Shown here: positions 20,872-47,837 of the stretch, piece by piece
How positions within the stretch are numbered: position 1 is the first letter of the stretch
How the letters are laid out: each line of letters opens with the position of its first letter
Source of the DNA: Vulcanimicrobiota bacterium
GTDB lineage: Bacteria > Vulcanimicrobiota > Vulcanimicrobiia > Vulcanimicrobiales > Vulcanimicrobiaceae
NCBI GenBank assembly: GCA_963714015.1
Contig: OY970223.1
Location: forward strand, 160,001-224,000
Length of the DNA: 64,000 bases
Direction: 5' to 3'
The notes under the pieces: generated by a model
The model's input: only the letters and a program-made list of their open reading frames with translations
What the model was told of the DNA's origin: nothing
Database searches by the model: none
Translations under genes and position numbers: made by a program

Positions 20872-22670
20872 GTGGCGCTGCCCTCAATTGCTTTTGACGT
20901 AGTTCCAATTCGCCGCGAGCCGTATTCGTTCTACGAAGACTTTCCAGGCTGCCCGCAGCCGCCGCTGATTTCCCTTCCCCCAGAAAGTCGACGCATTGGC
21001 GAAGCGTTCGCTCGGTGTCAAAGACACGCCGCTCTCCCGCATGGTTCTCCAGCTCGGCGTTCAACGCAACGGGCCTTTCGGCGTTCCTGCGCAGTGCTTC
21101 AGCGCGGCTCCCGGAGCTGTTGAACAGCGTGGATATTCGGCGGTCGGCCGGGGACATTCAAAACGCCGCAACGGTAGCGATCGAGGATGACCCGGCCTGC
21201 GCCGATGCGTTTGTCCGAAGCGCAAGTCTTCTCAAAGCGGCTTGGTCGATGTATGCGGACATCTTCAGCGGCCGCTTTGCACCCGACGAACTCAACGGAG
21301 TGCCGCTCGAGATGCGGCAGTATCCGAACGTGTTCGGAACGACGTCCTGCTACGAGAACGGCGCGATCCGCCGGCGCAAGAGCGCCGCCGTTTCTCGAGT
21401 TTTGGTTCTTGCGCGCGGACAAACGTTCGTGCTCGACTTCGGCCGGGATTGGGCCAATCTGGCAATCGATGATATTGCGAGCGCCTTCAAGAAAACGTGG
21501 AGCGAATCGTACGCATCGGATGCAGCCAATCGCGGAGCGAGCCTTGGTCTAGTATCGGCGACGAACGATAAACTGCAGCGATCGCTATTCGAAACGACCC
21601 TCCGTCATGCGACGAATCGCCAATCGCTCGCGGAGCTCCAGAATACCTTCTTGACGATTTGTCTAGATTTGGATGCGGAGCCGCGATCCTACGCTGAAGC
21701 GCTGCAGATTGCTCATGGAGGAAACACGCCGAATCGCTGGTTCAACGCAAGCACGCAAATTGTGGTTTTCGGTAACGCGCGGTCTTGCGGGATTTTCAAT
21801 TTCTCCGCTTGCATCGACGGCAACGTGATGATGCGCACCGCAAGCGAGCTGCGCGCCCGTGCGGCTCGGTACACTTCCCAGGCGGAGCATCGTGCGGAGC
21901 GGATGGGGGAGTCCCCGCCGAAAGCGCGGCGGCTCCGCTGGCTCATAGATGCGCAGGTTATCAAACGGGCGCAATCCGATCTCGCACAACTCGCCGACAG
22001 CGCGCAGTTCACTTTTGAACTTCCAGGCTATGGAAGCGCGCGATTCCATTCCCGAGGATTGGAACCGGTTTCAGCCTTCGTCATGGCGGTCAATATTGCG
22101 GCGTCCCGGATACTCCGCCGAGCACCCATCGTGTCGGAGTTTCTTACGCAGTCGCGATACCGGTACATGGGCGTCCGGTCAATCGTAACGACCACTCCTG
22201 AACATTTACGTTTTTTCGAGGCATTAGAATTACCCCAGCGAGATGTTCGTCATGCGCGGGCCGCTTTCGAAAACGCCTGCGCGAAACGGGCGCAGGCCTG
22301 CCGCAATGCTCGCTCCGTCTTGGCAATTCTTCCCGCGATCGATCTCTTCCGGAGCACCCTAGACACGCGCGGCCGAAAGACGTTCAATCGCAAGCTCTAC
22401 GGGTGCGTCGCCTTGCTGAGACGGCTGGGCCTTTCGGTGCCGCCGACCGACGTCACCCTCTCCTCTCCGGCGCTCGCGCCGGGAGTCCGATTCGTGGGAC
22501 GTTCGGGTGTGCGAACGCGCAGCACCGGCGGATTCCTGATGCATTATCACCTCTTAGAAGATCGGCTGGTGGTCACCGTTATGCCCGGCATCGAATGCCG
22601 CCATTCCAACGAGACTGATGGTTGCAGAAATTCGCCGGGCTCTGGACGATCTGCTGAACCTTTTTACTAA
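20872..22670 (+). CDS. Choline/carnitine O-acyltransferase family protein; ends uncertain, probable frameshifts
   Basis: PLEMRQYPNVFGTT, VLARGQTF, ICLD and NRWFNASTQIVVFGN...IDG match the PLCMxQY..F.TT and NRWxD..Q....NG....EHS..DG family motifs. Confidence 0.75.
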
Positions 22671-22726
22671 TAGTAATTGCTCCTCCGCCGAAGGTGCGGA
22701 CGGCTGAATCGCAAACACAGATGGTT

Positions 22727-22768
22727 GCCGGCTCATTACGCACGCCGGCTTGCGTACTAAAACGGAGG
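22727..22768 (+). promoter_or_regulatory. Hairpin plus AAACGGAGG RBS upstream of precursor P1
   Basis: GCCGGC-N11-GCCGGC followed by TGCGTACTAAAACGGAGG; similar element precedes P2. Confidence 0.55.
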
Positions 22769-22777
22769 CGCCATCTC

Positions 22778-22948
22778 ATGGAGTACGCCGCACCGAACGT
22801 CCTGACGTCTTACCTCGTTCCGGAGCTCTCTCGGGATGCAAGGGGCTTTGCCAGCGATCCCGTCTTCTGCGATCGTGACGAGCGCGCAGACTCGGGCCAT
22901 TATCCGGACTGCACGTATACCTTCGTGCCTCGCGGCGGGTACGACTAG
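22778..22948 (+). CDS. Putative RiPP precursor P1 (56 aa): MEYAAPNVLTSYLVPELSRDARG-FASDPVFCDRDERADSGHYPDCTYTFVPRGGYD
   Basis: GGAGG RBS; YxxP leader; paralogous to three other small ORFs; immediately upstream of a JmjC gene. Confidence 0.85.
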   Translation: MEYAAPNVLTSYLVPELSRDARGFASDPVFCDRDERADSGHYPDCTYTFVPRGGYD

Positions 22949-23064
22949 CCCGCCGCTTTTGCGGCATCTCGCCAAACGGCCCATTAATCCGACCGCAGAC
23001 GGCTCAGCGCTCTATAGTACGACGGCACGTATGGCCGTCCGTTGCCCTCGGATACGCTCATTTT

Positions 23065-24301
23065 ATGTGGAGCACTTCGCCTGCGGGGCGCGCCGCTTTG
23101 GCATGGCTGCTCACGCCGCTTTCGATTGAAGAGTTTCAATCGCAGTACTACGAGCGTGCGCCGATGCACGTTGCCCGCGACCGAGCTGGATATTACCAGC
23201 GCGTCTTCGATCTGCTCGAAGTGGAACGCATTCTCTACGCCAGCGAGCTTCACAAAGCCGATATCCGCCTGGTCAAAGACGGCGTGCCGGTGCGGCCGGA
23301 GTCATACCTGGTTCCGAAGCCGGTCTGCAAAGAGAACGAGCTCGAGCCGTATACCGATCGGGTCGACGCCGATCGGATCAGTGCGCTGTTTGCGAGCGGG
23401 TGCTCTATCGTCATGCACGACGTGCGCTCGCTTTCGGCTCCCGCGGCAAATTTCTGCCGTGAGTTGGAGATGCTCTTTCATCACCGCGTCTCGCCCAACA
23501 TGTATCTTACGCCCCCCGGTAATCAGGGCTTCGACGCGCACTACGACACGCACGATACGGCGATCGTGCAGATCGAGGGAACCAAGCACTGGCGCGTCTA
23601 CGAGTCGGCGTTTCCGCTTCCGCTGGACGATCAAACGTTCGATAAGCGCCTACACACTCCGGGAAAAGTTTGCATCGAGGCAGACCTGCGCCCCGGCGAT
23701 TTCCTCTACATCCCTCGCGGTTTTTTGCACGAGGCCAAGGCGAACGAGGACCTTTCGCTTCATTTGACGCTGGGTTTATATCCGCGTCGCTGGATCCAGG
23801 TGCTAAAGAAAGCGCTGGACGATGCCGGCGAGGCAGCGGAGAACGCGCTGCTGCGAGAGACGGCCACAGCCGAGAGCGTTCCGGCGCTGCACGCACTGCT
23901 GCAAAGCATCTTGGCGCATAGCGCGCTCTGCGCTGCCGAAGTCGCGATCGAAAACCAATTCGTGCGAGAACGGCGAAACGGGCTGGACGGCCAGATGAAT
24001 CAGATTTCCCGCTTGCGGGAGCTGGGCGAGGAATCGCTGGTTGCGCTGCGGCCGAACGTGCTGTACGAGCTGACCGAGAGCGAGAAAACCGCGCGGTTGG
24101 CGTTCTCCGGAAAGAATTTGGTGTTCGGAGCCGGCGCAAGCGGCATCATCCGGGAACTCGAAGGCGCGGCTTCGCGCGCGGGCCGGCGATCTGCTCAAGC
24201 ACGATCCCAAAGCGCTGGCGATCCTGCGTAAGCTGATTCAGGAAGGCTTTGCCGTTCAACTTCCTCCCGCGCAGCAGCGCGCAGCGCGAACGGTAGCCTA
24301 A
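23065..24301 (+). CDS. JmjC/cupin_4 (YcfD/NO66-like) Fe(II)/2OG oxygenase 1, frameshift near 24180
   Basis: YLTPPGNQGFDAHYDTHD, GTKHW and YIPRGFLHEA; C-terminus ALAILRKLIQEGFAVQ lies in a shifted frame ending TAA at 24301. Confidence 0.9.
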
Positions 24302-24596: not shown

Positions 24597-24606
24597 CACT
24601 ATTCTT

Positions 24607-24964: not shown

Positions 24965-26191
24965 ATGGCCGCTGTTTCGCGCGATCGCACGACCCTGGCG
25001 TATCTGCTTGCGCCTCTTTCGATCGACGAATTCCTCAATGGGTACGCGCAGAGATCGCCTTTGCACGTCCGACGGGACGTCGAAGCGTATTATGAGCGAT
25101 ACTTCAACCTGAGCGAGTTCGAACGCGTCATATTCGGCTGTAAAATCACGACCGATGATCTGCGGATGATCAAGGACGGAACGCCGGTGCGTGAGGAGTC
25201 CTACATCTGGGAAGCTCCGAAAAAGTATACACCGCCTACGGTAACGTATCGCAGCAGCGTCGTGGACGCAGACCGCTTGGCCGGGCAGTTCGCGCACGGC
25301 TGCACGGTCAACATGAACAACATCGAACGCTACTCGCCTGGCGCGGCGTCGCTCGCCCGCGATCTTTCCGCGTTCTTTCAGAGCGGGGTTGGCGCAAATG
25401 TCTATCTGACGCCGCCGGGAAACCAAGGGTTCGGCGCCCACTACGACACGCACGACACAATGATCTTACAGATCGAGGGATCCAAGCGCTGGCGAGTATA
25501 CGAGCCGACGATCGAGTTGCCGCTCGACCATCAAATTTATCATCGCATCGGACATACGGTGCCCGGTCCATTGCTCTTCGAAACCGATTTGATGCCCGGC
25601 GATTTGCTCTACTTGCCGCGCGGCTTCTTTCACGAAGGGAAAGCCAACGAGGAACTCTCACTCCACGTCACATACAGCATCGCTCAGCCGCGCTGGGTGC
25701 AAGTTGCAATCGAAGCCCTCATGCGAGCCGCGGAATCGGACGTCCGCCTGCGCCGCTTCGCGGTCGATAGTCCTTCCGACGTCCCGGCCGCCCTCGCCGC
25801 GGCGTTGACCCCGGAGTTGCTGCAAGCCGCGCTGGACCGGTTGCGCGCTGAATTCCATGCCGTGTACCGCAGCGAGCTGGACGGCCAGCTGCGCCAGGTT
25901 GCGGCCTTGAACGATCTCTCGGAGCATTCGTTTATCTCCAAACGGCCTAGCGTTCTCTATGACGTCGAGGAAACTCCGAACGGCGTGCGCCTGACCTTCG
26001 CGGGCAAGACGGTCGGTCTTCCAGCCTCTGCAAAAGCCGTTGTCAACGAGCTCGACAGCGTTTCGGCCGTTGCCGTTTCCTCGCTGGTTGCGCACGATCC
26101 TAAGGCGCTCAACATCGTCCGGCGCCTCATTCAGGAAGGCTTTGCCGTTCAATTGCGGCCCGAGCGCAACCACAGCGCATCGGTTGCCTGA
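24965..26191 (+). CDS. JmjC/cupin_4 oxygenase 2
   Basis: GFGAHYDTHD, GSKRW and YLPRGFFHEG; AAAGGAG RBS. Confidence 0.92.
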   Translation: MAAVSRDRTTLAYLLAPLSIDEFLNGYAQRSPLHVRRDVEAYYERYFNLSEFERVIFGCKITTDDLRMIKDGTPVREESYIWEAPKKYTPPTVTYRSSVVDADRLAGQFAHGCTVNMNNIERYSPGAASLARDLSAFFQSGVGANVYLTPPGNQGFGAHYDTHDTMILQIEGSKRWRVYEPTIELPLDHQIYHRIGHTVPGPLLFETDLMPGDLLYLPRGFFHEGKANEELSLHVTYSIAQPRWVQVAIEALMRAAESDVRLRRFAVDSPSDVPAALAAALTPELLQAALDRLRAEFHAVYRSELDGQLRQVAALNDLSEHSFISKRPSVLYDVEETPNGVRLTFAGKTVGLPASAKAVVNELDSVSAVAVSSLVAHDPKALNIVRRLIQEGFAVQLRPERNHSASVA

Positions 26192-26213: not shown

Positions 26214-27176
26214 ATGATCCCCCAATCAGCCGTGCCGATCCGTCTTATCCGCCGCGAAGGAGAAATCGGCGTCGATTGGCTCCGGCTCACTGCGTCGAAC
26301 ATGTCCGAACCGTTCTTCTTTCAGACCGTAAAACGGCTCAGGGAAGCCGGAGAACGCTACGTTTTCACCGGAGCCGACGAGTTGACGGCCTTTGCCGAAC
26401 GCTCGCACGACGTGAAGACCGCCTTTATTTTTCACGTTTCGCACTGCGGGTCGACGCTTCTCGCAAATGCGTTGAAAACCGTGGCAAATGCAGTTGTGAT
26501 CTCGGAACCGGCGTTGATGACGCCTGGTCAGCTTTTGTCGCCCTCGGCACGAAAGGCGTTCGGCCGATCTACGCTCGAGGCGCTCATCCTGGGCGCCGTC
26601 AACGCTTACGCTCTGAACGGGCCGCCAAAGCGTTACGTGTTTTTTAAGTTCATGGACTTGGCCAGCCTTGCGCTACCGACGCTGCGCCGCATGTTTCCGG
26701 CCGTCCCGTTTGTGTTCATCTATCGCGAACCCAGCCACGTCATTGCCTCGAACCTTGAGGAGGTGCCGGAAGATCTGCGTCTGAGCGCTGCGCCCGACAT
26801 TAAAGCCTTGCTCGGGAAGGATCAGGCTTGGGAGCCTTCCGCGACGGCCTGGTGGTCAGCAATATACGAGGCCGAGTGTCTGCGGGCGGCCGTAGCGCCG
26901 AACACGGTTATGGTAGACTACTGTGATCTGAACGATACCCGCGCAGTTCAGTTGATGTGCCACCTGGGAATGAACAGTGGCGACATCGACAAGGCTGCAG
27001 TCTCGACAACATTCGGGCGCTACTCGAAGGCCTCGCCAACCCAGAACATGACGTTCTCGCCGGCAGCGGACTACGAGCGCCGCCGCACTACGGCAGAACG
27101 AATGGATCCTGGAGAGTATCTCCCCGCAAGCGCAGCTTACCGGCGTCTGCGCGCGATGAAAGCGCGAATCGCATAG
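26214..27176 (+). CDS. Sulfotransferase-like (PAPS-binding P-loop) protein
   Basis: FIFHVSHCGSTLL (5'-PSB-like), ISEP and FVFIYREP..VIAS (3'-PB-like) motifs. Confidence 0.7.
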   Translation: MIPQSAVPIRLIRREGEIGVDWLRLTASNMSEPFFFQTVKRLREAGERYVFTGADELTAFAERSHDVKTAFIFHVSHCGSTLLANALKTVANAVVISEPALMTPGQLLSPSARKAFGRSTLEALILGAVNAYALNGPPKRYVFFKFMDLASLALPTLRRMFPAVPFVFIYREPSHVIASNLEEVPEDLRLSAAPDIKALLGKDQAWEPSATAWWSAIYEAECLRAAVAPNTVMVDYCDLNDTRAVQLMCHLGMNSGDIDKAAVSTTFGRYSKASPTQNMTFSPAADYERRRTTAERMDPGEYLPASAAYRRLRAMKARIA

Positions 27177-27183: not shown

Positions 27184-28416
27184 ATGTGGAACTTTAAGTA
27201 TGACCAAGTGCTGCGCCGTTTCCTGACCCCGGTTCCGCTTGAACGTTTCCTGTCCGAATACTACGAGCGCAAAGTTCTGTACCTTCCGCGAAATGACGCG
27301 CAGTTTTTTCAGGGCGATTTCAGTCTGGCCGAGGTCGATCGATTCCTTCACAGCGTTGAGATTTCGGCCTCTTTTCTGCATGTCCTAAAAGACGGCGTCG
27401 GGACACCCGTCGCGGAGTATTCGCGCAACGTTCCGCGTTCCGATCCCGTTACGCATACCAGCGGCCAGGCGGCGATACTGGACCCGGGTCTCGTCGGCGA
27501 CTTTTTTGCCCGCGGCCATACGCTGCACTTCGATCATATACGTTCGTATAGTCCACAAGCAGCAGCGCTCTGCCGCGAGCTCGAGGGTTTCTTCGGCCAT
27601 CGCATCCGATGCACCGCATTCTTGACGCCGTCGCACAGTAAGGGATTTCGACTTCACTACGACGTGTACGATACATTCATTCTGCAGATTCACGGCTCCA
27701 AACGCTGGCGCGTGTCCGAAACGATGTTTCCGCTGCCGCTCGTGAGCCAGTTTTACACGCCTGACATGCAACCCGGCCCGTTGCTTCTGGATACCGTGCT
27801 GCGCCCTGGGGACTTCTTGTATATGCCGCGCGGCACGTTTCACGAAGCGGCAGCGGACGACGAAGCCTCGCTGCACTTGTCGATCGTGCCGGACCCCCTG
27901 CGATGGGAAGCGGTATTTCACCGCGTGCTGTCGGAGGTTGCGAAGGAAGAACTCCCGCTCCGTAGCAGCACGGCGACTCCGCTGAACGAGGAGGAGCTGG
28001 AAGTCATCGGAAGGCGCGTCTTTTCACGGGTGAGATCCGAAACCGCCAAGGACGAGCTGGAACTCGATTTTTACACGACGCGGCGAAACGACGGCAGCGG
28101 GCAGCTGCAGCAGATCTTGGATGCCGATCGGATCACGCCGCTTACGCAGATCTCCATTCGCGCCGGGTCGCTGTACAGCCTAAGCGAATCGGACCTGACC
28201 GCAACGGTGCGCTTTTCGGCAAAAGTCCTTCAGCTGCCGCGGAGTGCAGCGGAAATCGTCCGAGCTCTCGAATTGAACGGCCCGATGCCCGTGGCGGCGT
28301 TTCTCAAGTACGACGGAAACGCGCTTGCAATCGCGCGCACGTTGCTCAAGAGCGGCTTCTTAATGATGTCCGCGGAGCCGGAGAAGACCGGTGCAGTGCG
28401 CGTCCGATTGGGCTAA
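27184..28416 (+). CDS. JmjC/cupin_4 oxygenase 3
   Basis: GFRLHYDVYD, GSKRW and YMPRGTFHEA motifs. Confidence 0.92.
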   Translation: MWNFKYDQVLRRFLTPVPLERFLSEYYERKVLYLPRNDAQFFQGDFSLAEVDRFLHSVEISASFLHVLKDGVGTPVAEYSRNVPRSDPVTHTSGQAAILDPGLVGDFFARGHTLHFDHIRSYSPQAAALCRELEGFFGHRIRCTAFLTPSHSKGFRLHYDVYDTFILQIHGSKRWRVSETMFPLPLVSQFYTPDMQPGPLLLDTVLRPGDFLYMPRGTFHEAAADDEASLHLSIVPDPLRWEAVFHRVLSEVAKEELPLRSSTATPLNEEELEVIGRRVFSRVRSETAKDELELDFYTTRRNDGSGQLQQILDADRITPLTQISIRAGSLYSLSESDLTATVRFSAKVLQLPRSAAEIVRALELNGPMPVAAFLKYDGNALAIARTLLKSGFLMMSAEPEKTGAVRVRLG

Positions 28417-29200: not shown

Positions 29201-30421
29201 ATGTGGAGCTCATCGGCAGCCGAACGGGCCGTTTTTTCTTGGCTGGTCGCGCCTCATTCCATCGACGATTTCGCCGGGCATTACGAGCGCGCGCCGTTTC
29301 ACATATCGCGCAACGAGTCCGGACGCTACGATCGATATTTCAGTTTGCAGGAGATGGAGCGCGTGCTCTTCGGGTGCGAGCTGAACGTCAAGGATCTGCA
29401 GATCATCAAAGACGGCACCGCCGCTCGCCCCGAGACCTACACTCGCTCGCATTCCGAACCGAAACATCCGCTCGATCAGGCCGCCGGTGAAATCGTGAAC
29501 CCCGACCGCGCGAGCGCCCTCTTCGCAAGCGGGTGCACGGTCGTGCTCGACAACGTCAACAAATATTCCGCGTCGATGGCGTCGCTGTGCCGCGATCTGG
29601 AGATGTTTTTCGGCTGCCACGTCAACCCGAACGTCTACATGACGCCGCCGGGAAATCAAGGCTTCGCGGTTCATTACGACACGCATGACGCGCTGATCGT
29701 CCAAATCCGCGGATCGAAGCACTGGCGCGTGTACGAGTCCGCATTCCGGCTGCCGCTCGAGCATCAATACTGGGACAAGAAACTCTACCCCGCCGGCAAT
29801 ATGGTGCTCGATATGGAGATGCGGCCCGGGGACTTCCTTTACATTCCGCGCGGCTGCCTGCACGAGGCGAAGGCCAATGACGAGCTTTCGCTGCACGTAA
29901 CCATCGGACTCTATCCGACCCTTTGGACGCACGTCGCCGCGCAAGCGCTGATGAGGGCGGCGGAGGCGCTTCCATCGCTGCGGCAGGCGGCCGACGAAGA
30001 CGCAGCGGAGGCAATCTCGGCCGAGCTCGCGCAGGTCCTTGCGCCCGCGCGTCTGACCGAAGCTCTGCGCGCAGCCCGGCGAAGCTGGCGCAACGATCGC
30101 GACAACGGCCTCGAAGGACAACTCGAACAACTCGCCGCGCTGCCGCATCTGAACGAAGCGTCGATCGTGCGCAGGCGTCCGAACCTCTCTTACGAGTGGA
30201 TGGAGACCGAGCGCGGCGTCACGCTCACGTTTTCGGGAAAAACGGTGATACTCTCCAAGTCCGCGGCCGTCGTCATTCGCAAACTCGAAGCGGCCTCCGA
30301 ACTGGACGTCGCCGCACTCTGCGAACAAGACGAAAGTGCGCTCAAAGCGGTGCGCAAGCTGATTCAGGAAGGGTTCGCGATTCAGGAGCTCGGCGGCGAA
30401 CGCCGCTATAGAATCGCGTAG
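29201..30421 (+). CDS. JmjC/cupin_4 oxygenase 4
   Basis: GFAVHYDTHD, GSKHW, YIPRGCLHEA and C-terminal KLIQEGFA. Confidence 0.92.
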   Translation: MWSSSAAERAVFSWLVAPHSIDDFAGHYERAPFHISRNESGRYDRYFSLQEMERVLFGCELNVKDLQIIKDGTAARPETYTRSHSEPKHPLDQAAGEIVNPDRASALFASGCTVVLDNVNKYSASMASLCRDLEMFFGCHVNPNVYMTPPGNQGFAVHYDTHDALIVQIRGSKHWRVYESAFRLPLEHQYWDKKLYPAGNMVLDMEMRPGDFLYIPRGCLHEAKANDELSLHVTIGLYPTLWTHVAAQALMRAAEALPSLRQAADEDAAEAISAELAQVLAPARLTEALRAARRSWRNDRDNGLEGQLEQLAALPHLNEASIVRRRPNLSYEWMETERGVTLTFSGKTVILSKSAAVVIRKLEAASELDVAALCEQDESALKAVRKLIQEGFAIQELGGERRYRIA

Positions 30422-31668: not shown

Positions 31669-31779
31669 ACTCGAAGGTTCTTTTTGCAGCCCGATACTCC
31701 CCGCATGCAAACGTCTCATTCTGCCGTAAGCCATTACGCCCATGAAGTCACGACGCCGGGGCTTTACTATCAAAAGAGC

Positions 31780-33872: not shown

Positions 33873-33873
33873 G

Positions 33874-35878: not shown

Positions 35879-35894
35879 GTTGAATGGCTCCTGA

Positions 35895-37223: not shown

Positions 37224-37235
37224 GACGCTCTACTT

Positions 37236-38547: not shown

Positions 38548-38554
38548 GCGTTCT

Positions 38555-39163
38555 CTAAAAGGCTCCGTTGGCAGAGATGACGGCTTTGAAAGTACGGGCC
38601 AGAAGAATTCCGTCCGTGATCGGTGAGGCCGTTTCGATGTAGTGAAGATCGAGCAGTGTCGCTTCGGGGAGCGCCAGCGGCAGATTCGAACGCTCGCTGA
38701 TTTGCCAAAGCCCCGTCACGCCGGGCTCGACCAGATGACGCAAATGCTGCCACTTCGCGTACTTTTCGACCACGAAGGGCATCTCGGGCCTCGGCCCGAC
38801 CAGCGACATCTCGCCGCGCAAGACGTTTACGAGCTGCGGCAGCTCGTCGATCGAGGTCTTCCGAAGCAATTTCCCCACCCGCGTGATCCGCTCGTCTTGC
38901 GGGTCTGCCGGCGAGAGTTCGTCGCCGCAGCGCTGTTTGCGCATCGTGCGCAGTTTGTACATGACGAACGGACGCTCGAATTTTCCGATGCGGCGCTGCT
39001 TGAAGACGACCGGAAATCCATCTTCCATCGCGATCGCCGCTACGGCCAGCAACAGCACCGGCGCAGCCGCGCATAGCGCGAGGCTCGCGAGCACGACGTT
39101 CATGAAACGCCGCGCCCGCATGTAAACCCGCCGTTCGCGGTAGACGAGCGTCCGAACGTGCAT
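38555..39163 (-). CDS. Priming sugar (phosphoglycosyl) transferase
   Basis: KLRTM, DERITRVG, SIDELPQL and MSLVGPRPE motifs. Confidence 0.92.
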   Translation of the reverse strand: MHVRTLVYRERRVYMRARRFMNVVLASLALCAAAPVLLLAVAAIAMEDGFPVVFKQRRIGKFERPFVMYKLRTMRKQRCGDELSPADPQDERITRVGKLLRKTSIDELPQLVNVLRGEMSLVGPRPEMPFVVEKYAKWQHLRHLVEPGVTGLWQISERSNLPLALPEATLLDLHYIETASPITDGILLARTFKAVISANGAF

Positions 39164-39164
39164 T

Positions 39165-40247
39165 CTAGAGGCGTCCACCCGGCAGCAGCCACCGCGCCCA
39201 GACCGCGTTTTGGAAGAACGATTTAAAATCGATCTTGTGGCCTTCGGGCACGAACACGACGTCGCCGTCCTCGATTGCCGGATTGCTCACCGGATTGCCG
39301 TGCTCCAAGTTCGCTAGGTTGTACGAGCGCGTTACGCCGTTATGCTTGACCATAACGGACTTGAGGTCGGCCCATTTGTTCGGTCCGCCTGCGGCATAGA
39401 CCGCACTGGCAAGCGTGAAGTCTTGTTTCAGGACGACTTCTCCGCCGCCGTTCACCGCTCCGATCACTTGAACGTGCTCTTCGGACGGAATCACCAGCGA
39501 ATCTCCGGGCTGCGCCGGAGCGCTGAATTCCGGGCTCGACTGCCCGATGTCGATTTCGGTACCGTTGCGCTTGAGCAGTATCTGTCCGTACGACGCACTG
39601 TCCGTCAATCCGCCGAGCTGATCGATCGCTGCCGAGAGGGGCTGTCCGGCGCTTAGATATGCCATACCGGGTGCTTTGACTGCGCCTTTGACCGAGACTC
39701 CGATCGGGCGATCGACGAACGTAATACGATCGCCGGGCTGCAGCGAGGGGCCGGCATCGCCGGTGGATTTCAGGGTTTCGATATCGTATGGGCCGAGCGC
39801 AAAACCGTCGCGGACGACCTTGACGCGTGTCGTGTCGCCGCGCGAGACGGACAGCGAGCACGTACACTCTTTCTCGATCTCGCCCATAGCGTTGAGCAGC
39901 GTCTCGCCGGGGCGATACTGCAGCATTCCGCCGGGGCCGCCGACGACGGACATGTCGAGCGACTGAGAGATGAGTACGACGTCGACGGCCGGATAGCGCA
40001 CGTACGATGCGAGTCGATCCTGAATCCTCGACGCGAGCTCCTTCTCGGTTACTCCGACCGCCGGCACCTCTCCGGCGAGCGGAATGGAAACCAAACCTTC
40101 CGCATTGACGACTGCTTGCGTCGCCAGTTCGGGATGGTTATAGACCGAGATTCGAAGTGTGTCGCCCGGATGGAGCGCCGCCTGGGCGGCGGCACCCATC
40201 GAGAGCGCGAGCACGGTTGCGGCAATTGCGGTACGCCAGAGCTGCAT
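39165..40247 (-). CDS. Polysaccharide export protein (Wza-like, Poly_export plus SLBB)
   Basis: Signal peptide; PGDTLRISV, GLVSIPLAG and repeated V.GAV..PG / GD.V.VP motifs. Confidence 0.85.
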   Translation of the reverse strand: MQLWRTAIAATVLALSMGAAAQAALHPGDTLRISVYNHPELATQAVVNAEGLVSIPLAGEVPAVGVTEKELASRIQDRLASYVRYPAVDVVLISQSLDMSVVGGPGGMLQYRPGETLLNAMGEIEKECTCSLSVSRGDTTRVKVVRDGFALGPYDIETLKSTGDAGPSLQPGDRITFVDRPIGVSVKGAVKAPGMAYLSAGQPLSAAIDQLGGLTDSASYGQILLKRNGTEIDIGQSSPEFSAPAQPGDSLVIPSEEHVQVIGAVNGGGEVVLKQDFTLASAVYAAGGPNKWADLKSVMVKHNGVTRSYNLANLEHGNPVSNPAIEDGDVVFVPEGHKIDFKSFFQNAVWARWLLPGGRL

Positions 40248-40269: not shown

Positions 40270-41259
40270 TTAGGGTGTATTGAACGTCGTGATCGGCGAG
40301 ACGGCGAAGTCGATCTCTCCGGGAAGCTTCGGCGCCTGAACGGCACCTTGCGACGTGTAGACGTTGATGTACGGAACGTCGGAAGAGATCAGCATCACCT
40401 GGTACTGCGCCTTCGAGTAGAAATTGCCGGCCTCGACGCACTCGCTCGTCGAATTGGTGATCACGAAGCCGACCGTGATGAAACCGTTCTTCGGATTGTT
40501 GTTGAAGTGCGTAAGGAAATCCAAGAAGTATTCGTCGGATCCGGCCACCGGGTTCCAACTAACGTAAGCACTGCCCGCAGGGCATCCCGCCAGCGCGTTG
40601 CCTTTGAACGTTACCGAGGCCGCGGTTTGTCCTCCCAACATCGGCGCGTTCTGGGAGAGCAGGAACGACGCAGAACCGGCCGGCTTGGGAACGTTAGCGG
40701 CGTACGTGCCGCCGTGGTTTGAAGAGTCTTGATTTGCTTTATCGCCGATCAGCAACACTGTCGTGGAGGCCTTAGCCGGGAACGGCTGGCCCTTGATCCA
40801 TAACGGATTGCTGACCGTCATGTTATACGGTTTGGGGAGCTTCGGATTGTCGTTCGAGCACTCGCACAAACCGCTCGAGTCCCGGAACGTCATCAAGAAA
40901 GCGACTGCGGGTTCGATCTTGTTCTTCGCGCGCAAAATTGAAGCGGTTCCGCCGGTGACCTGCAGGCTGAACTTCGGCCCCGGGTTTTGGGAGAGCGTGT
41001 GGACCGATTGCATCGAGCGCACAGAGAGCGGCTGCGCGGTGTATCCGGCGTCCTGCTCCAGCTCGCTGAGCACGTCCGAACCGTCCAGGCTGAAGAGATC
41101 TTCGGCTGTGATGCTTTGGCTCTGCGGACTACCGCTGCCGCCGGAGTTGGCATTGGAGATGGCGCTCGATGCGCCGCCTCCGCTGCATCCGGTAAGCACG
41201 AGCAAAAGAGCAACCGACCCTAACCAGAAAGCATTTTTATGCATAAAATTCTCCGGCAT
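40270..41259 (-). CDS. Hypothetical lipoprotein
   Basis: Lipobox LTGC followed by a Ser/Gly linker. Confidence 0.65.
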   Translation of the reverse strand: MPENFMHKNAFWLGSVALLLVLTGCSGGGASSAISNANSGGSGSPQSQSITAEDLFSLDGSDVLSELEQDAGYTAQPLSVRSMQSVHTLSQNPGPKFSLQVTGGTASILRAKNKIEPAVAFLMTFRDSSGLCECSNDNPKLPKPYNMTVSNPLWIKGQPFPAKASTTVLLIGDKANQDSSNHGGTYAANVPKPAGSASFLLSQNAPMLGGQTAASVTFKGNALAGCPAGSAYVSWNPVAGSDEYFLDFLTHFNNNPKNGFITVGFVITNSTSECVEAGNFYSKAQYQVMLISSDVPYINVYTSQGAVQAPKLPGEIDFAVSPITTFNTP

Positions 41260-41375
41260 CTATAGATTTAAGAATCATAACCAAAGGCCGGCTGCGGCAT
41301 AAGAGCGGCCTGCACCAGGCCGGCAATAGGTATCTCACGACGACGCACAGCGCAGTTGGCGCGAGTCGTATGAGA

Positions 41376-41763
41376 CTAACGGCGTATGCTCAGGTGATAC
41401 TTCAGCGCTAAGCGCGCGCGCAAAAACATCGCACGAAACGGCGATCGCAGAGACGAACGGATTATGCGGCCGCCGCGCCGCACTTCGATGACGGTGCCCA
41501 GCAGCATCCGGGGGTCGACCGTTTCGCGAACGGTCACGCTCGCGTCTCCCGCCGTCAGCAGTGAGGCACCCGTTCCGACGAGCCGGTGAGCTGATCAGCA
41601 AATCGCGGTGTGCAAACACCACAACGTCACCGAAACGCGCCTTGCGATGCGGATCGACCAGCAGCTCGTCGCCGTCACGAATTCCCGGCGCCATACTCTT
41701 GCCGCTCAAACGCATGCGCCAAGGCTGCGTGGGACGTGCCATCGAGAGAACCTCGGCCAGCAT
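41376..41763 (-). CDS. S24/S26 family (signal peptidase I-like) peptidase, frameshift near 41592
   Basis: GKSMAPGIRDGD and GDVVVF, then in a shifted frame HRLV...LTAGDA; stop TAG at 41376. Confidence 0.75.
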
Positions 41764-41765
41764 TA

Positions 41766-42630
41766 CTACGCTACTGCGGATTCGGCGCCCGCGGTGAGCC
41801 GCCCGACGAGCTCGACGCTGTCCTGCGGCGCCCCTAGAGTCAAGGCGTAGAGCCGGCACTTCGAGAGCGCGTTGATCACGCGATCGACGACGCGCAGACG
41901 ATTGCTGTCGATCGTCGTTTGAATCTCGCTGCCGACGGCCATGAAAATCGCTTCCGAAAGCGGCAGTGGACGCGCGCGCGCGCTTCGTCCTCTGCCGACG
42001 ACAAAGAAGAAGGCCGTTCGCTTAGCGGTTGCCGCCCACTCGGAGGTCAGCGTTCCGGAGGGATCGACGCTCTCCCAATTCAGATCGAGCGACGTCAGTC
42101 CGAGCAGCCGCCGGGCGCCGGCGCGGACCGAAAACAGGCGCGGAAAAGCTTCGACTTCGTCGGTCGCGGTATTGACCAACGCAAACTCGTCCGACAGCGG
42201 ACGATTCTCCGGAGAGGCTGAGAATGAGCGCCATCGACGTGGTGCTCTTACCGCTCGTCGTCGGCCCGACTATCACCGCAGCCCGGTCGCCAAGCGCCAC
42301 CGCTCCGGCGTGAAAGACCACAAGTTCCGGACGCAGACGGAAAATGCGCGCGTTGATGGCAAGCATCGCGCGCCCTTCGATCGACGCGGGCGAGAGCCGC
42401 CCCGAGGCAAACGGTTCGTCGTCGAACACGCGGATGAACTCGTCGCCGATCAAAACGCCGGCGGATCGCCCGTGCGTGATAATATACGCGCTAAGTACCG
42501 GATCCGCTGTCGAACGGTTCAGCATGCGCGCATACCGGCGCTCGATAAGCTCGGTAACGCGGTCGTCGTCACACCCAATTTGGACGGGAATGCCCGCGAT
42601 CGATAGGCGTGCGATGACCGAACCCTCCGC
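41766..42630 (-). CDS. HprK-related kinase 1, frameshift near 42215; start uncertain
   Basis: FHAGAV and Walker A GPTTSGKST, then LSDEFALV...AFPR in a shifted frame. Confidence 0.78.
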
Positions 42631-42636
42631 TCAGTC

Positions 42637-42897
42637 CTACGCTACGACTTCTCGAACCAAACCTTGCTCGATGAAGACATGCATGATGTCGCTCACGTCC
42701 TGATCGACGTCGTGGCCATCCGCGTCATAACAGGTGCGCAGATAGTCGCCGAGCTCTCCAGCCGTCTTCCCCGAACAGTTCCGCAGCAAGTCGGCCGCGG
42801 TTTGATTGACCACGTGAACTTTTTCACGCGCGGAATCGTACACGAGCATCTCGGTGCCGACTTCGCGCATCTCCAAACCTTCGATCGCTTGAAACAT
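42637..42897 (-). CDS. Stand-alone PqqD family RiPP recognition element
   Basis: 86 aa with REVGTEMLVYD, VHVVNQTAA, Y.......DV and FIEQGLV pattern. Confidence 0.9.
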   Translation of the reverse strand: MFQAIEGLEMREVGTEMLVYDSAREKVHVVNQTAADLLRNCSGKTAGELGDYLRTCYDADGHDVDQDVSDIMHVFIEQGLVREVVA

Positions 42898-43151: not shown

Positions 43152-43248
43152 GGCGGTGGTCCTTTCCGGGCTTTCTCTTATTCTATCTGCGAGCAACCAA
43201 GGTCCAAAGTGCAGGAAGACACTTCGAGCACCGTGCCGTCGGCTTCAT

Positions 43249-44049
43249 CTACGTATAAGCCAACGAGCCTACGCGTCTGGAGTAACGCACCGAAAAAACG
43301 AAGAGCGCAAGAGCCAAAGGAATCCCCACTGCCGCAAAGCCGCCGAGAATGAGCAGGTTGCCGCCCAGCTCGGGCAAGCTCGCCCCGCGCAGCACCGCTT
43401 CGCGCAGCGCCGATAGGCCGTGCGTTATCGGAAAGACTGCCGAGAGCAGTTTCAAGGGCGCAGGCAGCGCGGCGATGGGAAAATATACGCCTCCCAGGAC
43501 GTTGGTGAGGCTCGCAACCATTGCGACGGCCGCGTCTCCCTGCTTGAACGCGATGACGGATGCGGCTGCGCAGATGCCGATCGGGGAGATGGCCAGCATA
43601 GAGAGCACGAGGACGACGGTCGCCGACAACGCGTTGGCGTGGTGGAGGTTGACCCCAAAGACCGAGGCGCCGACGATCAGGAAGAGCACGGCCTGCACCG
43701 CCGTGAAGATGAAAGCCGACGCCGCCGCGCCGGAGACGAATGCCGGCACGGAAGCCCGCGAAACCAGAATAGCCTCGAGCGTGCCCGACGATTGATCCCG
43801 GCGAATCGCGGATGCAAACGAGTGCAGCGCTACCGACTGAAATCGCGCAAACACAATGCCGATGAGCACGAACTCGAAGTACGGACCGTGAATGGATTTG
43901 AGCGCGCTCGAACTGGATCCGAAGGTCTTGCCGATAAAGAACATCATTGCGCACATGATCAGAACGGATGCGAGTTGCCCGACGACGGCAAACTTCGACA
44001 TCGTCTGAAACGCCCAATCGCGGCAGATGAACGCGGCGAGGATGCGCAT
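43249..44049 (-). CDS. ABC-2 type transporter permease
   Basis: About 6 TM segments; GTLEAIL and GGVYFP...LP..L...P.THGL motifs. Confidence 0.85.
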   Translation of the reverse strand: MRILAAFICRDWAFQTMSKFAVVGQLASVLIMCAMMFFIGKTFGSSSSALKSIHGPYFEFVLIGIVFARFQSVALHSFASAIRRDQSSGTLEAILVSRASVPAFVSGAAASAFIFTAVQAVLFLIVGASVFGVNLHHANALSATVVLVLSMLAISPIGICAAASVIAFKQGDAAVAMVASLTNVLGGVYFPIAALPAPLKLLSAVFPITHGLSALREAVLRGASLPELGGNLLILGGFAAVGIPLALALFVFSVRYSRRVGSLAYT

Positions 44050-44840
44050 CAGCCGACGCCTCCGGCGACGTGGCGGAAGTATCCGAACAAGGGATGCTCG
44101 CGCGTTCCGGCGGGCGCCTTCGCCTCGATTTCAATTGGTGTTCCGACCGCCGCGACGCGGCGTTCGTGAAGAATCGCCATTCGATCGCACATGGACCACG
44201 CCTCGTCGAGCTGATTGGTAGCGAGCAGGACGGTCTTGCGCTCCTGAACGACGAGCCGATCGCGCACCGATTGCCGGAAGTTCAACGCGGCAATCGGATC
44301 GAGGGCCTTCGTCGGCTCGTCGAGCAGCAGGATCGGCGGATCGGCCACCATCGCTCGAATCAGCGCCAGGCGCTGCTTCATGCCGGTGCTGAACGATCGC
44401 ACGCTGGAGTGCATGCGATCGGCGATGCCAAGCCACTCGGCCAGTTCCGAGATGCGCTTTTTCGAGGCACGCTCGCTCAGACCGTTGAGGCGCGCAAAAA
44501 ACGCCATGTTGTCCCAGGCGCTCAAGCGCATGTAGTACGCCCGCTCGTCGGAACTGCAAATCCCGATCGATGCGCGTGCCGGTGCGGCTTGTTTGTCGGC
44601 GTCGTATCCGAGGACGCTCACGCTGCCGGTATCGGGAATGATCAGCGTGGAGATGATCTTCAGCAGCGTCGTCTTTCCCGCCCCGTTGATTCCCAGCACG
44701 CCGAAGCATTCGCCTCTGTGGATCGTGAGCGAAACGTCGTCCAACGCCGGGCGGCGCTCGCGCCGGCGGAAGAGTTGCTTCACGCCTTGGTCGACGGGGT
44801 AGGCCTTGCTCACCCCGCGGACTTCGATCGCCTCAAGCAT
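44049..44840 (-). CDS. ABC transporter ATP-binding protein
   Basis: GINGAGKTT, FSTGMKQRL and LLLDEPT motifs. Confidence 0.92.
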   Translation of the reverse strand: MLEAIEVRGVSKAYPVDQGVKQLFRRRERRPALDDVSLTIHRGECFGVLGINGAGKTTLLKIISTLIIPDTGSVSVLGYDADKQAAPARASIGICSSDERAYYMRLSAWDNMAFFARLNGLSERASKKRISELAEWLGIADRMHSSVRSFSTGMKQRLALIRAMVADPPILLLDEPTKALDPIAALNFRQSVRDRLVVQERKTVLLATNQLDEAWSMCDRMAILHERRVAAVGTPIEIEAKAPAGTREHPLFGYFRHVAGGVG

Positions 44841-45978
44841 GATGGATGAACGGAGCCGCCGCGCGGCGCAGACCGCCCGCCAAACGCTTTGCGAGCGGCG
44901 GACGTTTGTCGAATTCTTCAAACTCCACGGAGCCGAAGTTTTGTTTGAGCAGGTGCAACCGTTCTCCGAGGCGCTCCATCCAGAAAAGACGCATCAGCGT
45001 GCGGTGGCCTTCGCCGCCGGTGAGCACCCGCGACTGTCCGATGCGCGTAGCGGAACGCGAGAGCAGCCCGCCGCGCAGTCTTTGAAGCCGCGAGAGCGCG
45101 CGCTCGTCTATGCCGGCATCGAGCAGCCAGTGCGCGAGCTCGATCGCCGGAACGGCGACTTGTGCGGTATTGCTCGCGCGCACGCGCTCTTCGAAGACGT
45201 TCCAATCGATGCCCCGGCGCAAAACTTCGGCGATGTCGACGATGCCGCGGACGTGTCCATCGAAGCCGTTCCCCCAAGCAAGGTGCACCGCGAGATGCAG
45301 CAGCTGGTCCTCCGGATCGAGAACGTGAACGGGAACGCCTGCGGCCATGGCGGCGACGGCCCGCGCGCGCATCGCCGCGACGTCGATTCGAAAAGGATTC
45401 GGCCGGCGGCCTAGATCCCAGTGCAGTTCGATGCAGAAAGACGCGCCCGGACGAGCGTAGCGCGGGAGCTGGTAGTAGTTGACGAAGTACCATTCACGCG
45501 TGTGCGGCGTCGGTTCAGAACGATAGCCGAGGTCTTCGAGCACGCGTTCGGCGCGGTCCAGATCTTCGATCGGAAGCAGAACGTCGAGATCGCAGAAAGC
45601 GCGCAAGCCGATGTCGCCGTACAAGTTCTCTACGAGCGCGACGCCTTTGAGCACTACCGGTGCCAAATCGTCGCGCGCGAAGGCCCGCAGCACTTCTCCG
45701 GCGCGCTGCAGATACACCGCGTTGAGCGCAACGGTTTTCTGTCTGGCCAAACGCAACTGCTCGCGCACCGGCTGCGGTATCGGCGCGTAGGGCGCGGCAT
45801 CGGCCGACCGCGAGAGCAGCGGCAGCAGATGATGCCGGCGCGCCTCTTGAATTACCCGTTCCCACGAATCGACGCCGCGCGCTGCCGACGCGACCGCCGA
45901 CGGATCGGCGTCCAGTCGAGCGCACGCGAGCATGAATTTTCGCTCGCCCGTGAGCGTGCGCGCTAAACGCCGGTGCAT
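44833..45978 (-). CDS. Nucleotidyltransferase family protein (NTP_transf_5 type)
   Basis: VVLKG..L...LYGD.GLR..CDLDVLL, IELHW and LLHLAVH motifs. Confidence 0.85.
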   Translation of the reverse strand: MHRRLARTLTGERKFMLACARLDADPSAVASAARGVDSWERVIQEARRHHLLPLLSRSADAAPYAPIPQPVREQLRLARQKTVALNAVYLQRAGEVLRAFARDDLAPVVLKGVALVENLYGDIGLRAFCDLDVLLPIEDLDRAERVLEDLGYRSEPTPHTREWYFVNYYQLPRYARPGASFCIELHWDLGRRPNPFRIDVAAMRARAVAAMAAGVPVHVLDPEDQLLHLAVHLAWGNGFDGHVRGIVDIAEVLRRGIDWNVFEERVRASNTAQVAVPAIELAHWLLDAGIDERALSRLQRLRGGLLSRSATRIGQSRVLTGGEGHRTLMRLFWMERLGERLHLLKQNFGSVEFEEFDKRPPLAKRLAGGLRRAAAPFIHHA

Positions 45979-45996
45979 AGAGAAATCTCCCGGTGC

Positions 45997-46665
45997 TTAG
46001 ATGAGGCCTGCCCGAACCGCATGCACCGCGGCTTGAGATCTCGCCGTGATGCTGAGTTTCGAGAAGATGTGGCTCACGTGATTCTTGACGGTCTTGTCGG
46101 ACAGGCGCAGCTGCTCGCTGATCTCTTTGTTCGAGAGTCCTTGCGCGATCAGACGAATCACCTCGTTTTCTCGCTGCGTCAGTTCGTACATGTGCGCGCG
46201 GCTGGTCGACGAGCGGCGGCGCAACAGTTCACCGGCGATTCGGGGATCGACGTACGAGCCGCCGGTCGCGATGATCTTGAGCGCCCGAATGAGCTCCTTG
46301 GGAGCGATGTCCTTGATGATATAGCCGTTCGCTCCGGCCGAGAGTCCACGCTGTAAAACCTCGGGCTGCAACTGGGTGGAGAGCAGGCAAATCTTCACCG
46401 CGGGAACCTCGCGGCCGCACGATGCGATCGCCTCGTCCATCTTCAGTATCTGCCCATCGACGTCGAAAACGATCAAATCCGGTACCAACGACCGCAAAGC
46501 GACCTTCTCAAGCGACTCGGCATCGCCGACGATTTCCAGTTCGGAGTCCAGCGAGAGCAACTGACAAAGCGCCTTGGCGAAGATTCCTTGTCCGGCGACG
46601 ACTACCACTCGCGTTGGGCGGGGGGCGGCTTCCGTATCGTTGACTCTTACTGCCGTAGCGGTCAT
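45997..46665 (-). CDS. NarL/LuxR family response regulator with atypical receiver domain
   Basis: PDLIVFD, GANGYIIK and LTQRENEV...GLSNKEI...TVKNHV motifs. Confidence 0.9.
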   Translation of the reverse strand: MTATAVRVNDTEAAPRPTRVVVVAGQGIFAKALCQLLSLDSELEIVGDAESLEKVALRSLVPDLIVFDVDGQILKMDEAIASCGREVPAVKICLLSTQLQPEVLQRGLSAGANGYIIKDIAPKELIRALKIIATGGSYVDPRIAGELLRRRSSTSRAHMYELTQRENEVIRLIAQGLSNKEISEQLRLSDKTVKNHVSHIFSKLSITARSQAAVHAVRAGLI

Positions 46666-46922
46666 AGCAAACCTCCGTCTGCTTCATAGCAAACCATCGT
46701 ACTAAAGGCTTTCACTCGCCGATAGAACGGCGAGTTGTGACGCAAATCATGCCACACCGAAAAGCCCATAGCCATCCCGCTTTCGCGGGATTTTTTGGGA
46801 AAAGGGACTAAAATATCGACGATTCTCCGGGCCATTCGCTCCCCCGCGTCCCGGTCCCACGGCATTGCGGACCATTTGCTCATGAGCGATCTGTCGCTCA
46901 CGCACGATGCGCTTCGAACGTT

Positions 46923-47837
46923 ATGATACATTCAGACCTGCGTCATGGAGTAACCGTGTCCGAAACATTACAGTATCGCATCGTCGACGTCGACATCGCC
47001 ATCGAAGCGCCCGCCGAGATTCTCTCGATCATCGTAGAGTCGTACCGGCGGTTTCCTATGACGAAGAATCGCACGCACCCGCATGTAACCGTCAGGGCGT
47101 CGCTCGTAGACGACGGTCAACTCGCCTTAACCATCGGTAACGTTCACTACAAAAACCTTTCCGCCGCTGCCGGCCATGGGCTGATCGGACTAGAACTTTC
47201 GAACGCGATCATCACCGGCGTAGCCGGGCATTCGCGTTTCATGATTCTCCACGCCGCGGCCGTCGAACGCGACGGGCAGGCGCTGTGCATCGCCGCAAGC
47301 GGCCACACCGGAAAGACGCTGCTGGCCTCGCACCTGGTTTCCCGCGGCTGGAGAGTCCTGAGCGACGAGTACGCTTTCATCGAACCGGCCGGCGGCCGTG
47401 TCGTCCCGTTTCCGAAGCTGCTGTACGTGCGATCGTCCTCACTTCCGCATATCCCGCGAAGCTTTCGCAAATGCGTTGAATCGTCGCCGTGGTACGGCAT
47501 GGGCGACTGGCCCGGTCTGGTGTTCTCCGGCGTCGATCCGGCGGACAGCTATTCCGAGGCAATTTGGTCGCAAGGCGCCCGGTTATCGCGCCTGCTCGTG
47601 ATGATTGAACGCAACGCTTCGGGACCTGCGATTACGCCCTGTAAACCTTGGTCGCTCATACCGGACCTCAACAGTTTGGTGTGGCAGCCTCCGGATTTAC
47701 TGGATGGTTTATCACGAATCGCCTCTGCGCTGCGCGGCGTCGAAGTCGCTCGAGTCGTTGCCGGAGATCCGATTCGCACCGTGAACGCGATCGAGCGCTG
47801 GGCGCTGCCCGAGAGTCAGGTTTTGCTGCATGCCTAA
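46923..47837 (+). CDS. HprK-related kinase 2
   Basis: LHAAAVERDG, SGHTGKT and GWRVLSDE...PFPK motifs; real start may be the GTG near 46956. Confidence 0.8.
   Translation: MIHSDLRHGVTVSETLQYRIVDVDIAIEAPAEILSIIVESYRRFPMTKNRTHPHVTVRASLVDDGQLALTIGNVHYKNLSAAAGHGLIGLELSNAIITGVAGHSRFMILHAAAVERDGQALCIAASGHTGKTLLASHLVSRGWRVLSDEYAFIEPAGGRVVPFPKLLYVRSSSLPHIPRSFRKCVESSPWYGMGDWPGLVFSGVDPADSYSEAIWSQGARLSRLLVMIERNASGPAITPCKPWSLIPDLNSLVWQPPDLLDGLSRIASALRGVEVARVVAGDPIRTVNAIERWALPESQVLLHA

Follow-up and report, generated by a model that had tools for sequence, protein, structure and literature searches.

The locus described here raises the question of whether four small open reading frames (ORFs), P1 to P4, which carry one common leader and lie in two separate enzyme loci, A (P1 and P2) and B (P3 and P4), belong to a single pathway for RiPPs (peptides made by the ribosome and modified after translation) and, if so, to which one. 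The window, that is, the whole 64,000-nt stretch of DNA that was analysed (positions 160,001 to 224,000 of contig OY970223.1, assembly GCA_963714015.1), comes from an uncultivated soil bacterium of the phylum Candidatus Eremiobacterota, deposited as Vulcanimicrobiota bacterium. All together, our analysis suggests that locus B is probably a cluster of the linear polyphosphorylated peptide (LPP) type and that locus A is probably a satellite of the same pathway. This reading is built on gene content, on the leader and its conservation and on the co-occurrence of the genes in related genomes, and each chemical step is proposed by analogy and from gene content.

The common leader and its family

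The four ORFs translate as the original prediction had proposed, and its claim of two Cys residues in each putative core was borne out for all of them. In the alignment of P1 to P4, positions Y3, P6, L17, G23, F24, S26 and C31 are invariant, and the P4 core pattern FAS..CFE.GP.NP.C is kept in the orthologs of two related genomes, G211 and G204. When a hidden Markov model (HMM) built from the four leaders was run against the six-frame translation of the genome (3.56 Mb, 84,099 segments), it returned four matches, namely P1 to P4 (E 2e-16 to 4e-15), followed by a next-best segment at E 0.33; by this measure the common leader is confined to the four peptides genome-wide. As these matches are self-hits, the non-circular test is provided by leave-out HMMs: the model from P1 and P2 ranked P4 as the top non-self segment of the genome (E 0.0077), and the model from P3 and P4 ranked P2 first (E 0.1).

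Each of the four ORFs is preceded by a Shine-Dalgarno motif, GGAGG, AAGGA or GAGG, 7–12 nt 5' of the ATG. In addition, the ratio of nonsynonymous to synonymous changes (pN/pS) is 0.29 between P1 and P2 and 0.41 between P4 and its G211 ortholog, values which indicate that the peptides evolve under purifying selection. A promoter scan of loci A and B returned no promoter-like sites, and a terminator scan of the same loci gave terminator-like sites at or under the shuffle expectation.

A search of the whole class (385 genomes in 89 genera) with an 11-sequence leader alignment found the family in 36 genomes and 20 genera, these tallies including four unpublished genomes (G234, G070, G059 and G010). 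From 45 leader loci of 20 published genomes, about 60 distinct family peptides were recovered, and iterated local HMMs were applied to the 631 ORFs of these loci to tabulate the neighbours. The peptides are of two types, the first with a G↓F-x-S junction (↓, predicted cut) and longer cores rich in Asp, Asn and Gly, the second of the form MYSTPKIIASLD...ALG with cores of 8–15 residues. The Gly is conserved in 55 of the 60 peptides, 44 of which have Ser at +3 or +4, and exactly two core Cys are present in 43 of the 60. Furthermore, G, F and S of the junction are invariant in 14 aligned GF-type precursors, those of A-type loci included. The scan and neighbour table that had been suggested as a check on the leader show the family recurring beside PqqD, kinase and JmjC genes, and homologous peptides in related genomes show that the small ORFs are conserved.

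Gene content of locus B and of the candidate satellite locus A

LPP clusters, described in 2026, lie in capsular polysaccharide loci of Bacilli, are patchily distributed and are cyclase-free (Popov et al., Nat Commun 2026, PMC13381572). Among the products of their genes, lppA-K-B-S-D-N, LppS is an archaeal-type signal peptidase, LppB a discrete RiPP recognition element (RRE), LppK an HprK-like kinase, LppN an NTP transferase and LppD an exporter. LppS depends on LppB for presentation of the leader, and the precursor, with the motif YxxPxVLxHQxIxFETxxS, is cut after T-1 and polyphosphorylated on S3 (PMC13381572). Apart from the type of its exporter, locus B matches this family gene for gene: it combines a signal-peptidase-I-like leader peptidase, a PqqD protein, HprK-like kinases, a PF14907 nucleotidyltransferase (NTase), an exporter and YxxP precursors, it lies in a polysaccharide locus and it has no macrolactam cyclase. 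The clusters hold one to three precursors with variable cores, with a Ser about three residues past the predicted cut; in P1 to P4, a cut at G↓F would make the invariant Ser the third residue of the core (F1-x2-S3), the place that it has in LppA. Because of this match, the statement of the original prediction that the system fits no RiPP class had to be given up, and with it the idea of a wholly new class.

Signal peptidases have small residues at -3 and -1, a rule that the predicted cut site of locus B, [A/V]-x-G↓, fits. The peptidase motifs (Ser GxSMxP, His AHR, Asp GD) are kept in the orthologs and in a homolog from Cohnella, D130 and D132 of the NTase DxD are invariant, and the PqqD protein, the sole one encoded in the genome, has an invariant D67 and an LN motif in common with the RRE of the Cohnella LPP cluster. 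For both kinases the best NCBIfam matches are models of the HPr-rel-A system, which are also one of three near-equal weak matches for the PqqD protein.

This Cohnella panacarvi cluster (L117), retrieved by an NTase locus search seeded with five closer sequences, provides a direct comparison. Its small ORF ends ...YAAPAVIEQRPFAFET↓RQS, in agreement with the published FET↓xxS motif, and BLASTP relates the cluster to the window through the NTase (E 4.9e-12), the peptidase (1.5e-8) and the kinases (2.5e-5 and 2.8e-4). When the two RREs are aligned, an Asn is common to both and an Asp is invariant; by way of the Cohnella homolog, these residues appear to be equivalent to LppB N33 and D70, which are said to fix the leader Pro and Tyr (PMC13381572).

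By analogy with LPP, the PqqD protein would bind the YxxP leader, either or both of the HprK-like kinases would phosphorylate the conserved Ser of G↓F-x-S at core position 3, the SipW-type signal peptidase would cut after [A/V]-x-G, the PF14907 NTase would add a further group to the phosphate, and the ABC-2 pump would export a linear, probably disulfide-looped peptide. Peptides of locus A would probably be hydroxylated, the likely targets being Asp/Asn-rich cores, and possibly decorated further, after which locus B would mature them in trans. The division of labour that had been proposed, in which B recognises, cuts and exports and A supplies precursors and tailoring, we likewise infer.

The satellite role of locus A is suggested by the following observations. 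Firstly, in the window locus A has no RRE, kinase, peptidase or pump gene of its own. Secondly, its precursors keep G↓F-x-S. Thirdly, the order of A-type locus, polysaccharide genes and B-type locus recurs in three genera: G211 and G204 carry the same exopolysaccharide genes between the two, with gaps of 13 kb and 11.5 kb, respectively.

Locus-type counts, obtained from the iterated local HMMs together with six-frame HMM scans and class-wide family searches, gave 13 B-type loci (kinase or kinases, PF14907 and ABC genes), 9 A-type loci (JmjC gene beside a precursor) and 23 orphan precursor loci of neither type among the 45. In all 14 B-type loci, the window included, the six-frame scan found both a signal-peptidase-I-like and a PqqD-like frame. 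None of the eight mapped A-type loci holds a PF14907 NTase or an ABC exporter, and one (L078) has an HprK-like ORF; the six-frame scan for PqqD and peptidase frames was not made on A-type loci. According to genome listings of leader, PF14907 and JmjC_2 compared by hand, PF14907 is found in 32 of the 36 leader-positive genomes (28 of 32 published ones) versus 58 of 349 leader-negative ones, proportions that overstate the statistical strength of the co-occurrence because related genomes are not independent. A leader match lies within 5 kb of a PF14907 NTase in 21 published genomes and, in the eight published leader-positive genomes with JmjC_2, 16 of 17 JmjC_2 matches lie within 5 kb of a leader. 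The earlier claim that P1 to P4 form one leader family, which connects the JmjC locus with the locus that encodes the recognition protein, kinases, peptidase and exporter, is supported, and the linkage recurs in other genomes. Since both other genomes of the window's genus have no leader, PF14907 or JmjC_2, the island is accessory.

Some genomes encode peptidase and NTase as one protein, with the peptidase at the N-terminal end, namely those of one sister family (f3 loci of G051, G060 and G068) and the f1 genomes G012, G017, G033 and G253. The fused proteins measure 504–565 aa (L015:6265-7920 on the minus strand, L066, L075, L079, L080, L084 and L065), and on their sequence the fusion is a physical tie between leader removal and the NTase.

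Turning to locus A, its genes run on the plus strand in the order acyltransferase-family, P1, JmjC, P2, JmjC, sulfotransferase-like, JmjC, JmjC. The triad H159/D161/H222 (HxD...H) of JmjC oxygenase 1 is invariant in 61 homologs. Its AlphaFold model (pLDDT 94.1) matches NO66 over the full length (TM 0.69), as well as MINA53 and YcfD; the gene product shows the features of a ribosomal oxygenase (ROX), that is, an HxD...H JmjC core, a helical domain for dimerisation and, at the C-terminus, a winged-helix domain. Judged from gene context, a ribosomal-protein substrate is unlikely for these enzymes. Asp, Asn, Gly, Ser, Thr and Pro abound in the cores adjoining JmjC genes, and Asp/Asn hydroxylation is no more than our guess at the reaction. 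Co-folding of JmjC oxygenase 1 with P1, both given as alignments, scored 0.00 against a mark of 0.32 and speaks neither for nor against binding.

In G211 (L059), two paralogs homologous to the sulfotransferase-like protein adjoin a precursor and its JmjC gene, and one of the two scores 27.5 bits against a cut-off of 27. The acyltransferase-family protein belongs to a rare bacterial group, with just seven homologs at E<=1e-5 in a search of 5.8 billion proteins and none among the 45 related loci. Catalysis by choline/carnitine acyltransferases depends on a His base, and it is thus odd that the alignment of the eight members has no invariant His.

The neighbouring genes belong to the families that had been named, with corrections to some frames: the permease is read at 43249-44049 and not at 43178-44134, and the genes of kinase B and of the peptidase are frameshifted in the assembly with respect to their orthologs, by one base at 42216 and near 41590, respectively. 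A public sequencing-run search gave one DNA run with 0.34 of the words, and a short-read contig from a public run lacks one base at 42216; removing this base opens a 287-aa kinase B frame that is 70% identical to the G211 ortholog over its full length, so that this break probably reflects either an error of the assembly or variation between strains. A split is also seen in the UDP-glucose dehydrogenase gene (37585-38547 and 37236-37934), and the assembly looks indel-prone.

Table 1. Features of loci A and B and of the Cohnella comparator (window coordinates unless otherwise stated).
Feature	Position	Strand	Remarks
Choline/carnitine O-acyltransferase-family protein	21015..22670	+	551 aa, start uncertain; PF00755 E 3.4e-36; directly 5' of P1
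Precursor P1	22778..22948	+	56 aa; leader MEYAAPNVLTSYLVPELSRDARG; predicted core begins FAS; GGAGG 9 nt upstream
JmjC oxygenase 1 (ribosomal-oxygenase type)	23065..24231	+	388 aa; PF08007 E 1.1e-25
Precursor P2	24607..24783	+	58 aa; GGAGG upstream; pN/pS 0.29 vs P1
JmjC oxygenase 2	24965..26191	+	408 aa; PF08007 E 2e-27
Sulfotransferase-like protein	26214..27176	+	320 aa; weak PF13469, E 0.0065, under cut-off
JmjC oxygenase 3	27184..28416	+	410 aa; PF08007 E 3.1e-24
JmjC oxygenase 4	29201..30421	+	406 aa; PF08007 E 3.7e-28
Exopolysaccharide genes	31684..40247		glycosyltransferase, epimerase, Wzy_C, Wzz, tyrosine-kinase-like, UDP-glucose dehydrogenase (split), Bac_transf, Poly_export
Conserved 329-aa protein	40270..41259	-	orthologs in same place in G211, G204, 52-55% identity; may be a polysaccharide gene instead
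Signal-peptidase-I-like leader peptidase (S24/S26, SipW/archaeal type)	41335..41859	-	PF00717 E 4.3e-8; weak TIGR02228 (archaeal-type signal peptidase I)
HprK-like kinase B	41769..42585	-	placed by tblastn vs G211 ortholog; weak TIGR04352
PqqD-family RiPP recognition element	42637..42897	-	86 aa; PF05402 E 6.7e-9
Precursor P4	42907..43050	-	47 aa; orthologs in G211, G204; pN/pS 0.41 vs G211 ortholog
Precursor P3	43050..43151	-	33 aa; orthologs in G211, G204
ABC-2 type permease	43249..44049	-	tblastn 77% identity to G204 permease, itself PF01061
ABC transporter ATPase	44049..44921	-	PF00005 E 3.9e-31
PF14907 nucleotidyltransferase (PsmN/LppN type)	44833..45978	-	PF14907 E 1.6e-52
LuxR-type response regulator	45997..46665	-	position kept in G211, G204, G037
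HprK-like kinase A	46923..47837	+	304 aa, divergent; TIGR04352 E 5.3e-17; 75% identical to G211 ortholog
Comparator cluster	Cohnella panacarvi L117:8854-13451		NTase, ABC exporter, 30-aa precursor, kinase, RRE, signal-peptidase-like gene

The conserved 329-aa protein next to the polysaccharide genes had no Pfam or NCBIfam match, and an ESM Atlas search for it gave sub-0.9 leads only. A PQQ_2 beta-propeller gene at 30406-31920 (minus strand), at the 3' end of locus A, recurs by precursor-JmjC loci in three other genomes (L013:10801-11769; L057; L014:13121-15400). On the 5' side of locus A lie genes for an FkbM-type methyltransferase (18986-19963, minus strand) and a putative endonuclease of the Uma2 family (20010-20531, minus strand), and the ORFs at 20451-20870 and 20872-21123 are without a family match.

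As regards the orphan precursors, in six loci (L048, L069, L071, L074, L076 and L083) they lie at a median of about 0.7 kb from a protein of about 920 aa that carries TPR repeats together with a STAND/NB-ARC NTPase and a cyclase domain of the adenylate/guanylate type, and that may be a sensor or regulator linked to the leader-family peptides. Runs of DUF4760 paralogs of about 200 aa flank orphan precursors in two related genomes (L049, L048, L068 and L069).

A probable single pathway and its alternatives

Several observations weigh against a single LPP-type pathway. Concerning the enzymes, the PqqD protein found nothing under E 0.38 among PDB sequences and shows no BLASTP-detectable similarity to the Cohnella RRE, the HPr-rel-A models TIGR04352 (with kinase A), TIGR04353 and TIGR04355 score far under their cut-offs (61.8 bits versus 200, 18.7 versus 35 and 22.7 versus 200, respectively), and the frameshift of the peptidase gene is bridged by no contig among the 8 of 43 contigs shown. 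The exporter consists of a separate ABC ATPase and ABC-2 permease, whereas that of LPP is MsbA-like. Concerning the precursors, Tyr and Ser are 23 residues apart, 9 more than the 14 of the Cohnella precursor, and the family has Gly at -1 and Phe at +1, whereas LPP has Thr at -1 and Phe at -3. Concerning distribution, four of the 36 leader-positive genomes (G268, G347, G064 and G067, with completeness of 93, 79, 96 and 62%, respectively) have no PF14907 match. JmjC_2, present in 84 of the 385 genomes of the class, occurs also in 76 without the leader, so that this enzyme family is not specific to the system, and a leader-like ORF was found in none of 12 sampled JmjC loci of leader-negative genomes.

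The alternative that survives best, which we nevertheless consider unlikely, is that A and B are two independent pathways with a similar inherited leader: locus A would be self-sufficient, with recognition through the winged-helix domains of the JmjC enzymes, cleavage by housekeeping proteases and no phosphorylation, and locus B would make P3 and P4 only. The JmjC oxygenase 1 model does end in a beta-beta-beta-alpha-alpha segment (residues 335-378), and RRE-like folds fused to PF08007 domains have been described, with bacterial homologs in RiPP-like contexts (PMC12710340). In addition, G037 has its A-type and B-type loci on separate contigs, some A-type loci of G211 and G204 (L057, L059 and L062) are far from any B-type locus, and G268 has an A-type locus and no PF14907 match. 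However, a profile-profile comparison of the PqqD and JmjC families gave a probability of 1.3%, which leaves the RRE relation without sequence support. Moreover, the G↓F-x-S junction, with the Ser at which LPP kinases would act, is invariant in A-type precursors, which is hard to explain if hydroxylases alone read them; PF14907 is present in six of the seven published genomes with A-type loci, and the conserved order of A-type locus, polysaccharide genes and B-type locus in three genera also speaks for one pathway.

More doubtful still is the idea that the peptides, instead of being free natural products, are covalently joined to the exopolysaccharide of the intervening genes, giving a cell-surface or biofilm-matrix conjugate. 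In such a conjugate attachment would be through the polyphosphorylated Ser3, to which the sugar or polymer would be linked by the PF14907 enzyme, perhaps along with the Wzy_C/O-antigen-ligase-like protein, and JmjC hydroxylation, sulfation and acylation would create further sites of decoration.

It is very unlikely that P1 to P4 are ordinary lasso peptides whose cyclase and B2 peptidase are encoded elsewhere. The YxxP leader, PqqD protein, HprK-like kinase, PF14907 NTase and ABC pump do make up the accessory set of phosphorylated lasso clusters of the paeninodin and pseudomycoidin (PsmK/PsmN) types (PMC6993621), and NTase homologs in other phyla often adjoin cyclase-sized AsnB-like genes. The genome, a single contig with a marker completeness of 89.6%, was searched for both missing enzymes. 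Its sole full Asn_synthase-family (PF00733) protein is a true AsnB: its 395 bits on TIGR01536 are over the cut-off of 267, and its 184.8 bits on the lasso-cyclase model NF033535 fall short of the cut-off of 525. A second Asn_synthase match is marginal (E 5.2e-4; 20.6 bits alone and 21.7 with its neighbours, cut-off 21; model positions 13-82), and Transglut_core3 (PF13471), the B2 peptidase family, has no match in this genome at the completeness given. Likewise, an HMM seeded with AsnB retrieved none of the 631 ORFs around the 45 leader loci; in a positive control, this seed picked up five proteins of cyclase size from NTase loci of other phyla, which shows that the search is able to detect cyclases. 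The absence of a class-defining cyclase, first noted for the window, thus holds genome-wide. Furthermore, many cores have no Asp or Glu at positions 7-9, and in all 14 B-type loci the place of B2 is taken by a signal-peptidase-type protease. As neither a lasso cyclase nor a B2 peptidase was found in the genome at this completeness, we conclude that P1 to P4 are very probably not lasso peptides.

Finally, it is least probable of all that the small ORFs are chance frames and that the enzymes act elsewhere, for example on polysaccharide intermediates, since, although the DNA is about 61% G+C with spurious ORFs in all frames and no RNA run was listed as holding the stretch in the public sequencing-run search, homologous peptides from 20 other genomes keep a fixed place beside PqqD or JmjC genes, and mostly retain exactly two core Cys, and P1 to P4 themselves have the Shine-Dalgarno motifs and low pN/pS values reported above.

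Comparison with LPP and other known systems

Returning to the reading of locus B as an LPP-type cluster with locus A as its satellite, the core pathway would be a new member of the LPP class, and the locus A satellites appear to be undescribed. In its leader the family has YxxPx[VIL][VIL] and Ser at +3/+4 and lacks the HQxIxFET middle. The LPP paper of May 2026 calls the class 'restricted to the Bacillota' (PMC13381572), whereas the host here belongs to Candidatus Eremiobacterota; an enzyme logic described only in 2026 from Bacillota would therefore operate in an uncultivated soil phylum. Further differences are the two kinase paralogs, the short cores, mostly with two Cys, which should ease structure solving by mass spectrometry, the many dispersed precursor genes, and the peptidase-NTase fusions of some genomes, which tie the NTase to leader removal. 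The satellites, which encode JmjC oxygenases together with sulfotransferase-like and acyltransferase-family proteins, also set the system apart from LPP. We found no account, in the literature searched or in the main text of PMC13381572, of leader-sharing satellites of this kind, of peptidase-NTase fusions, of dispersed precursors or of a conserved polysaccharide sandwich; the words JmjC, cupin and sulfotransferase are absent from that main text, a statement that does not extend to its supplements. That A, the polysaccharide genes and B keep this order in three genera makes it more pressing to ask whether the peptides act with or on exopolysaccharide.

In the paeninodin and pseudomycoidin systems a YxxP-type leader is bound by PqqD/B1, an HprK-like kinase acts on Ser and a PF14907-type NTase is needed for the addition of a hexose to the phosphate (PMC6993621); the loci have in common with them this type of leader, the PqqD, kinase and NTase genes and an ABC exporter. 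They differ in that no macrolactam cyclase and no B2 cysteine peptidase are found in this genome, and in the place of the conserved Ser, which is close to the core N-terminus here and at the C-terminus in the lasso type.

The HPr-rel-A system of NCBIfam, defined by kinase A (TIGR04352), a PqqD chaperone (TIGR04353) and kinase B (TIGR04355), presents the same folds and the same pairing of kinase and PqqD; a literature search returned no paper using these system names.

As for the oxygenases, JmjC hydroxylases that tailor RiPPs are known, namely BipG, acting on ornithine (PMC12707348), and CzlI, acting on Phe (PMC11575548). Locus A resembles these cases in having genes for JmjC-fold oxygenases beside a ribosomal precursor, with hydroxylation of the core as the expected outcome. 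It differs from them in the three-domain NO66/MINA53/YcfD type of its enzymes, in their four paralogs and in their pairing with an LPP-type leader in a separate locus. In conclusion, through leader-sharing satellites JmjC relatives of the ROX group, a sulfotransferase and an odd acyltransferase would become enzymes that tailor peptides under the guidance of a leader.

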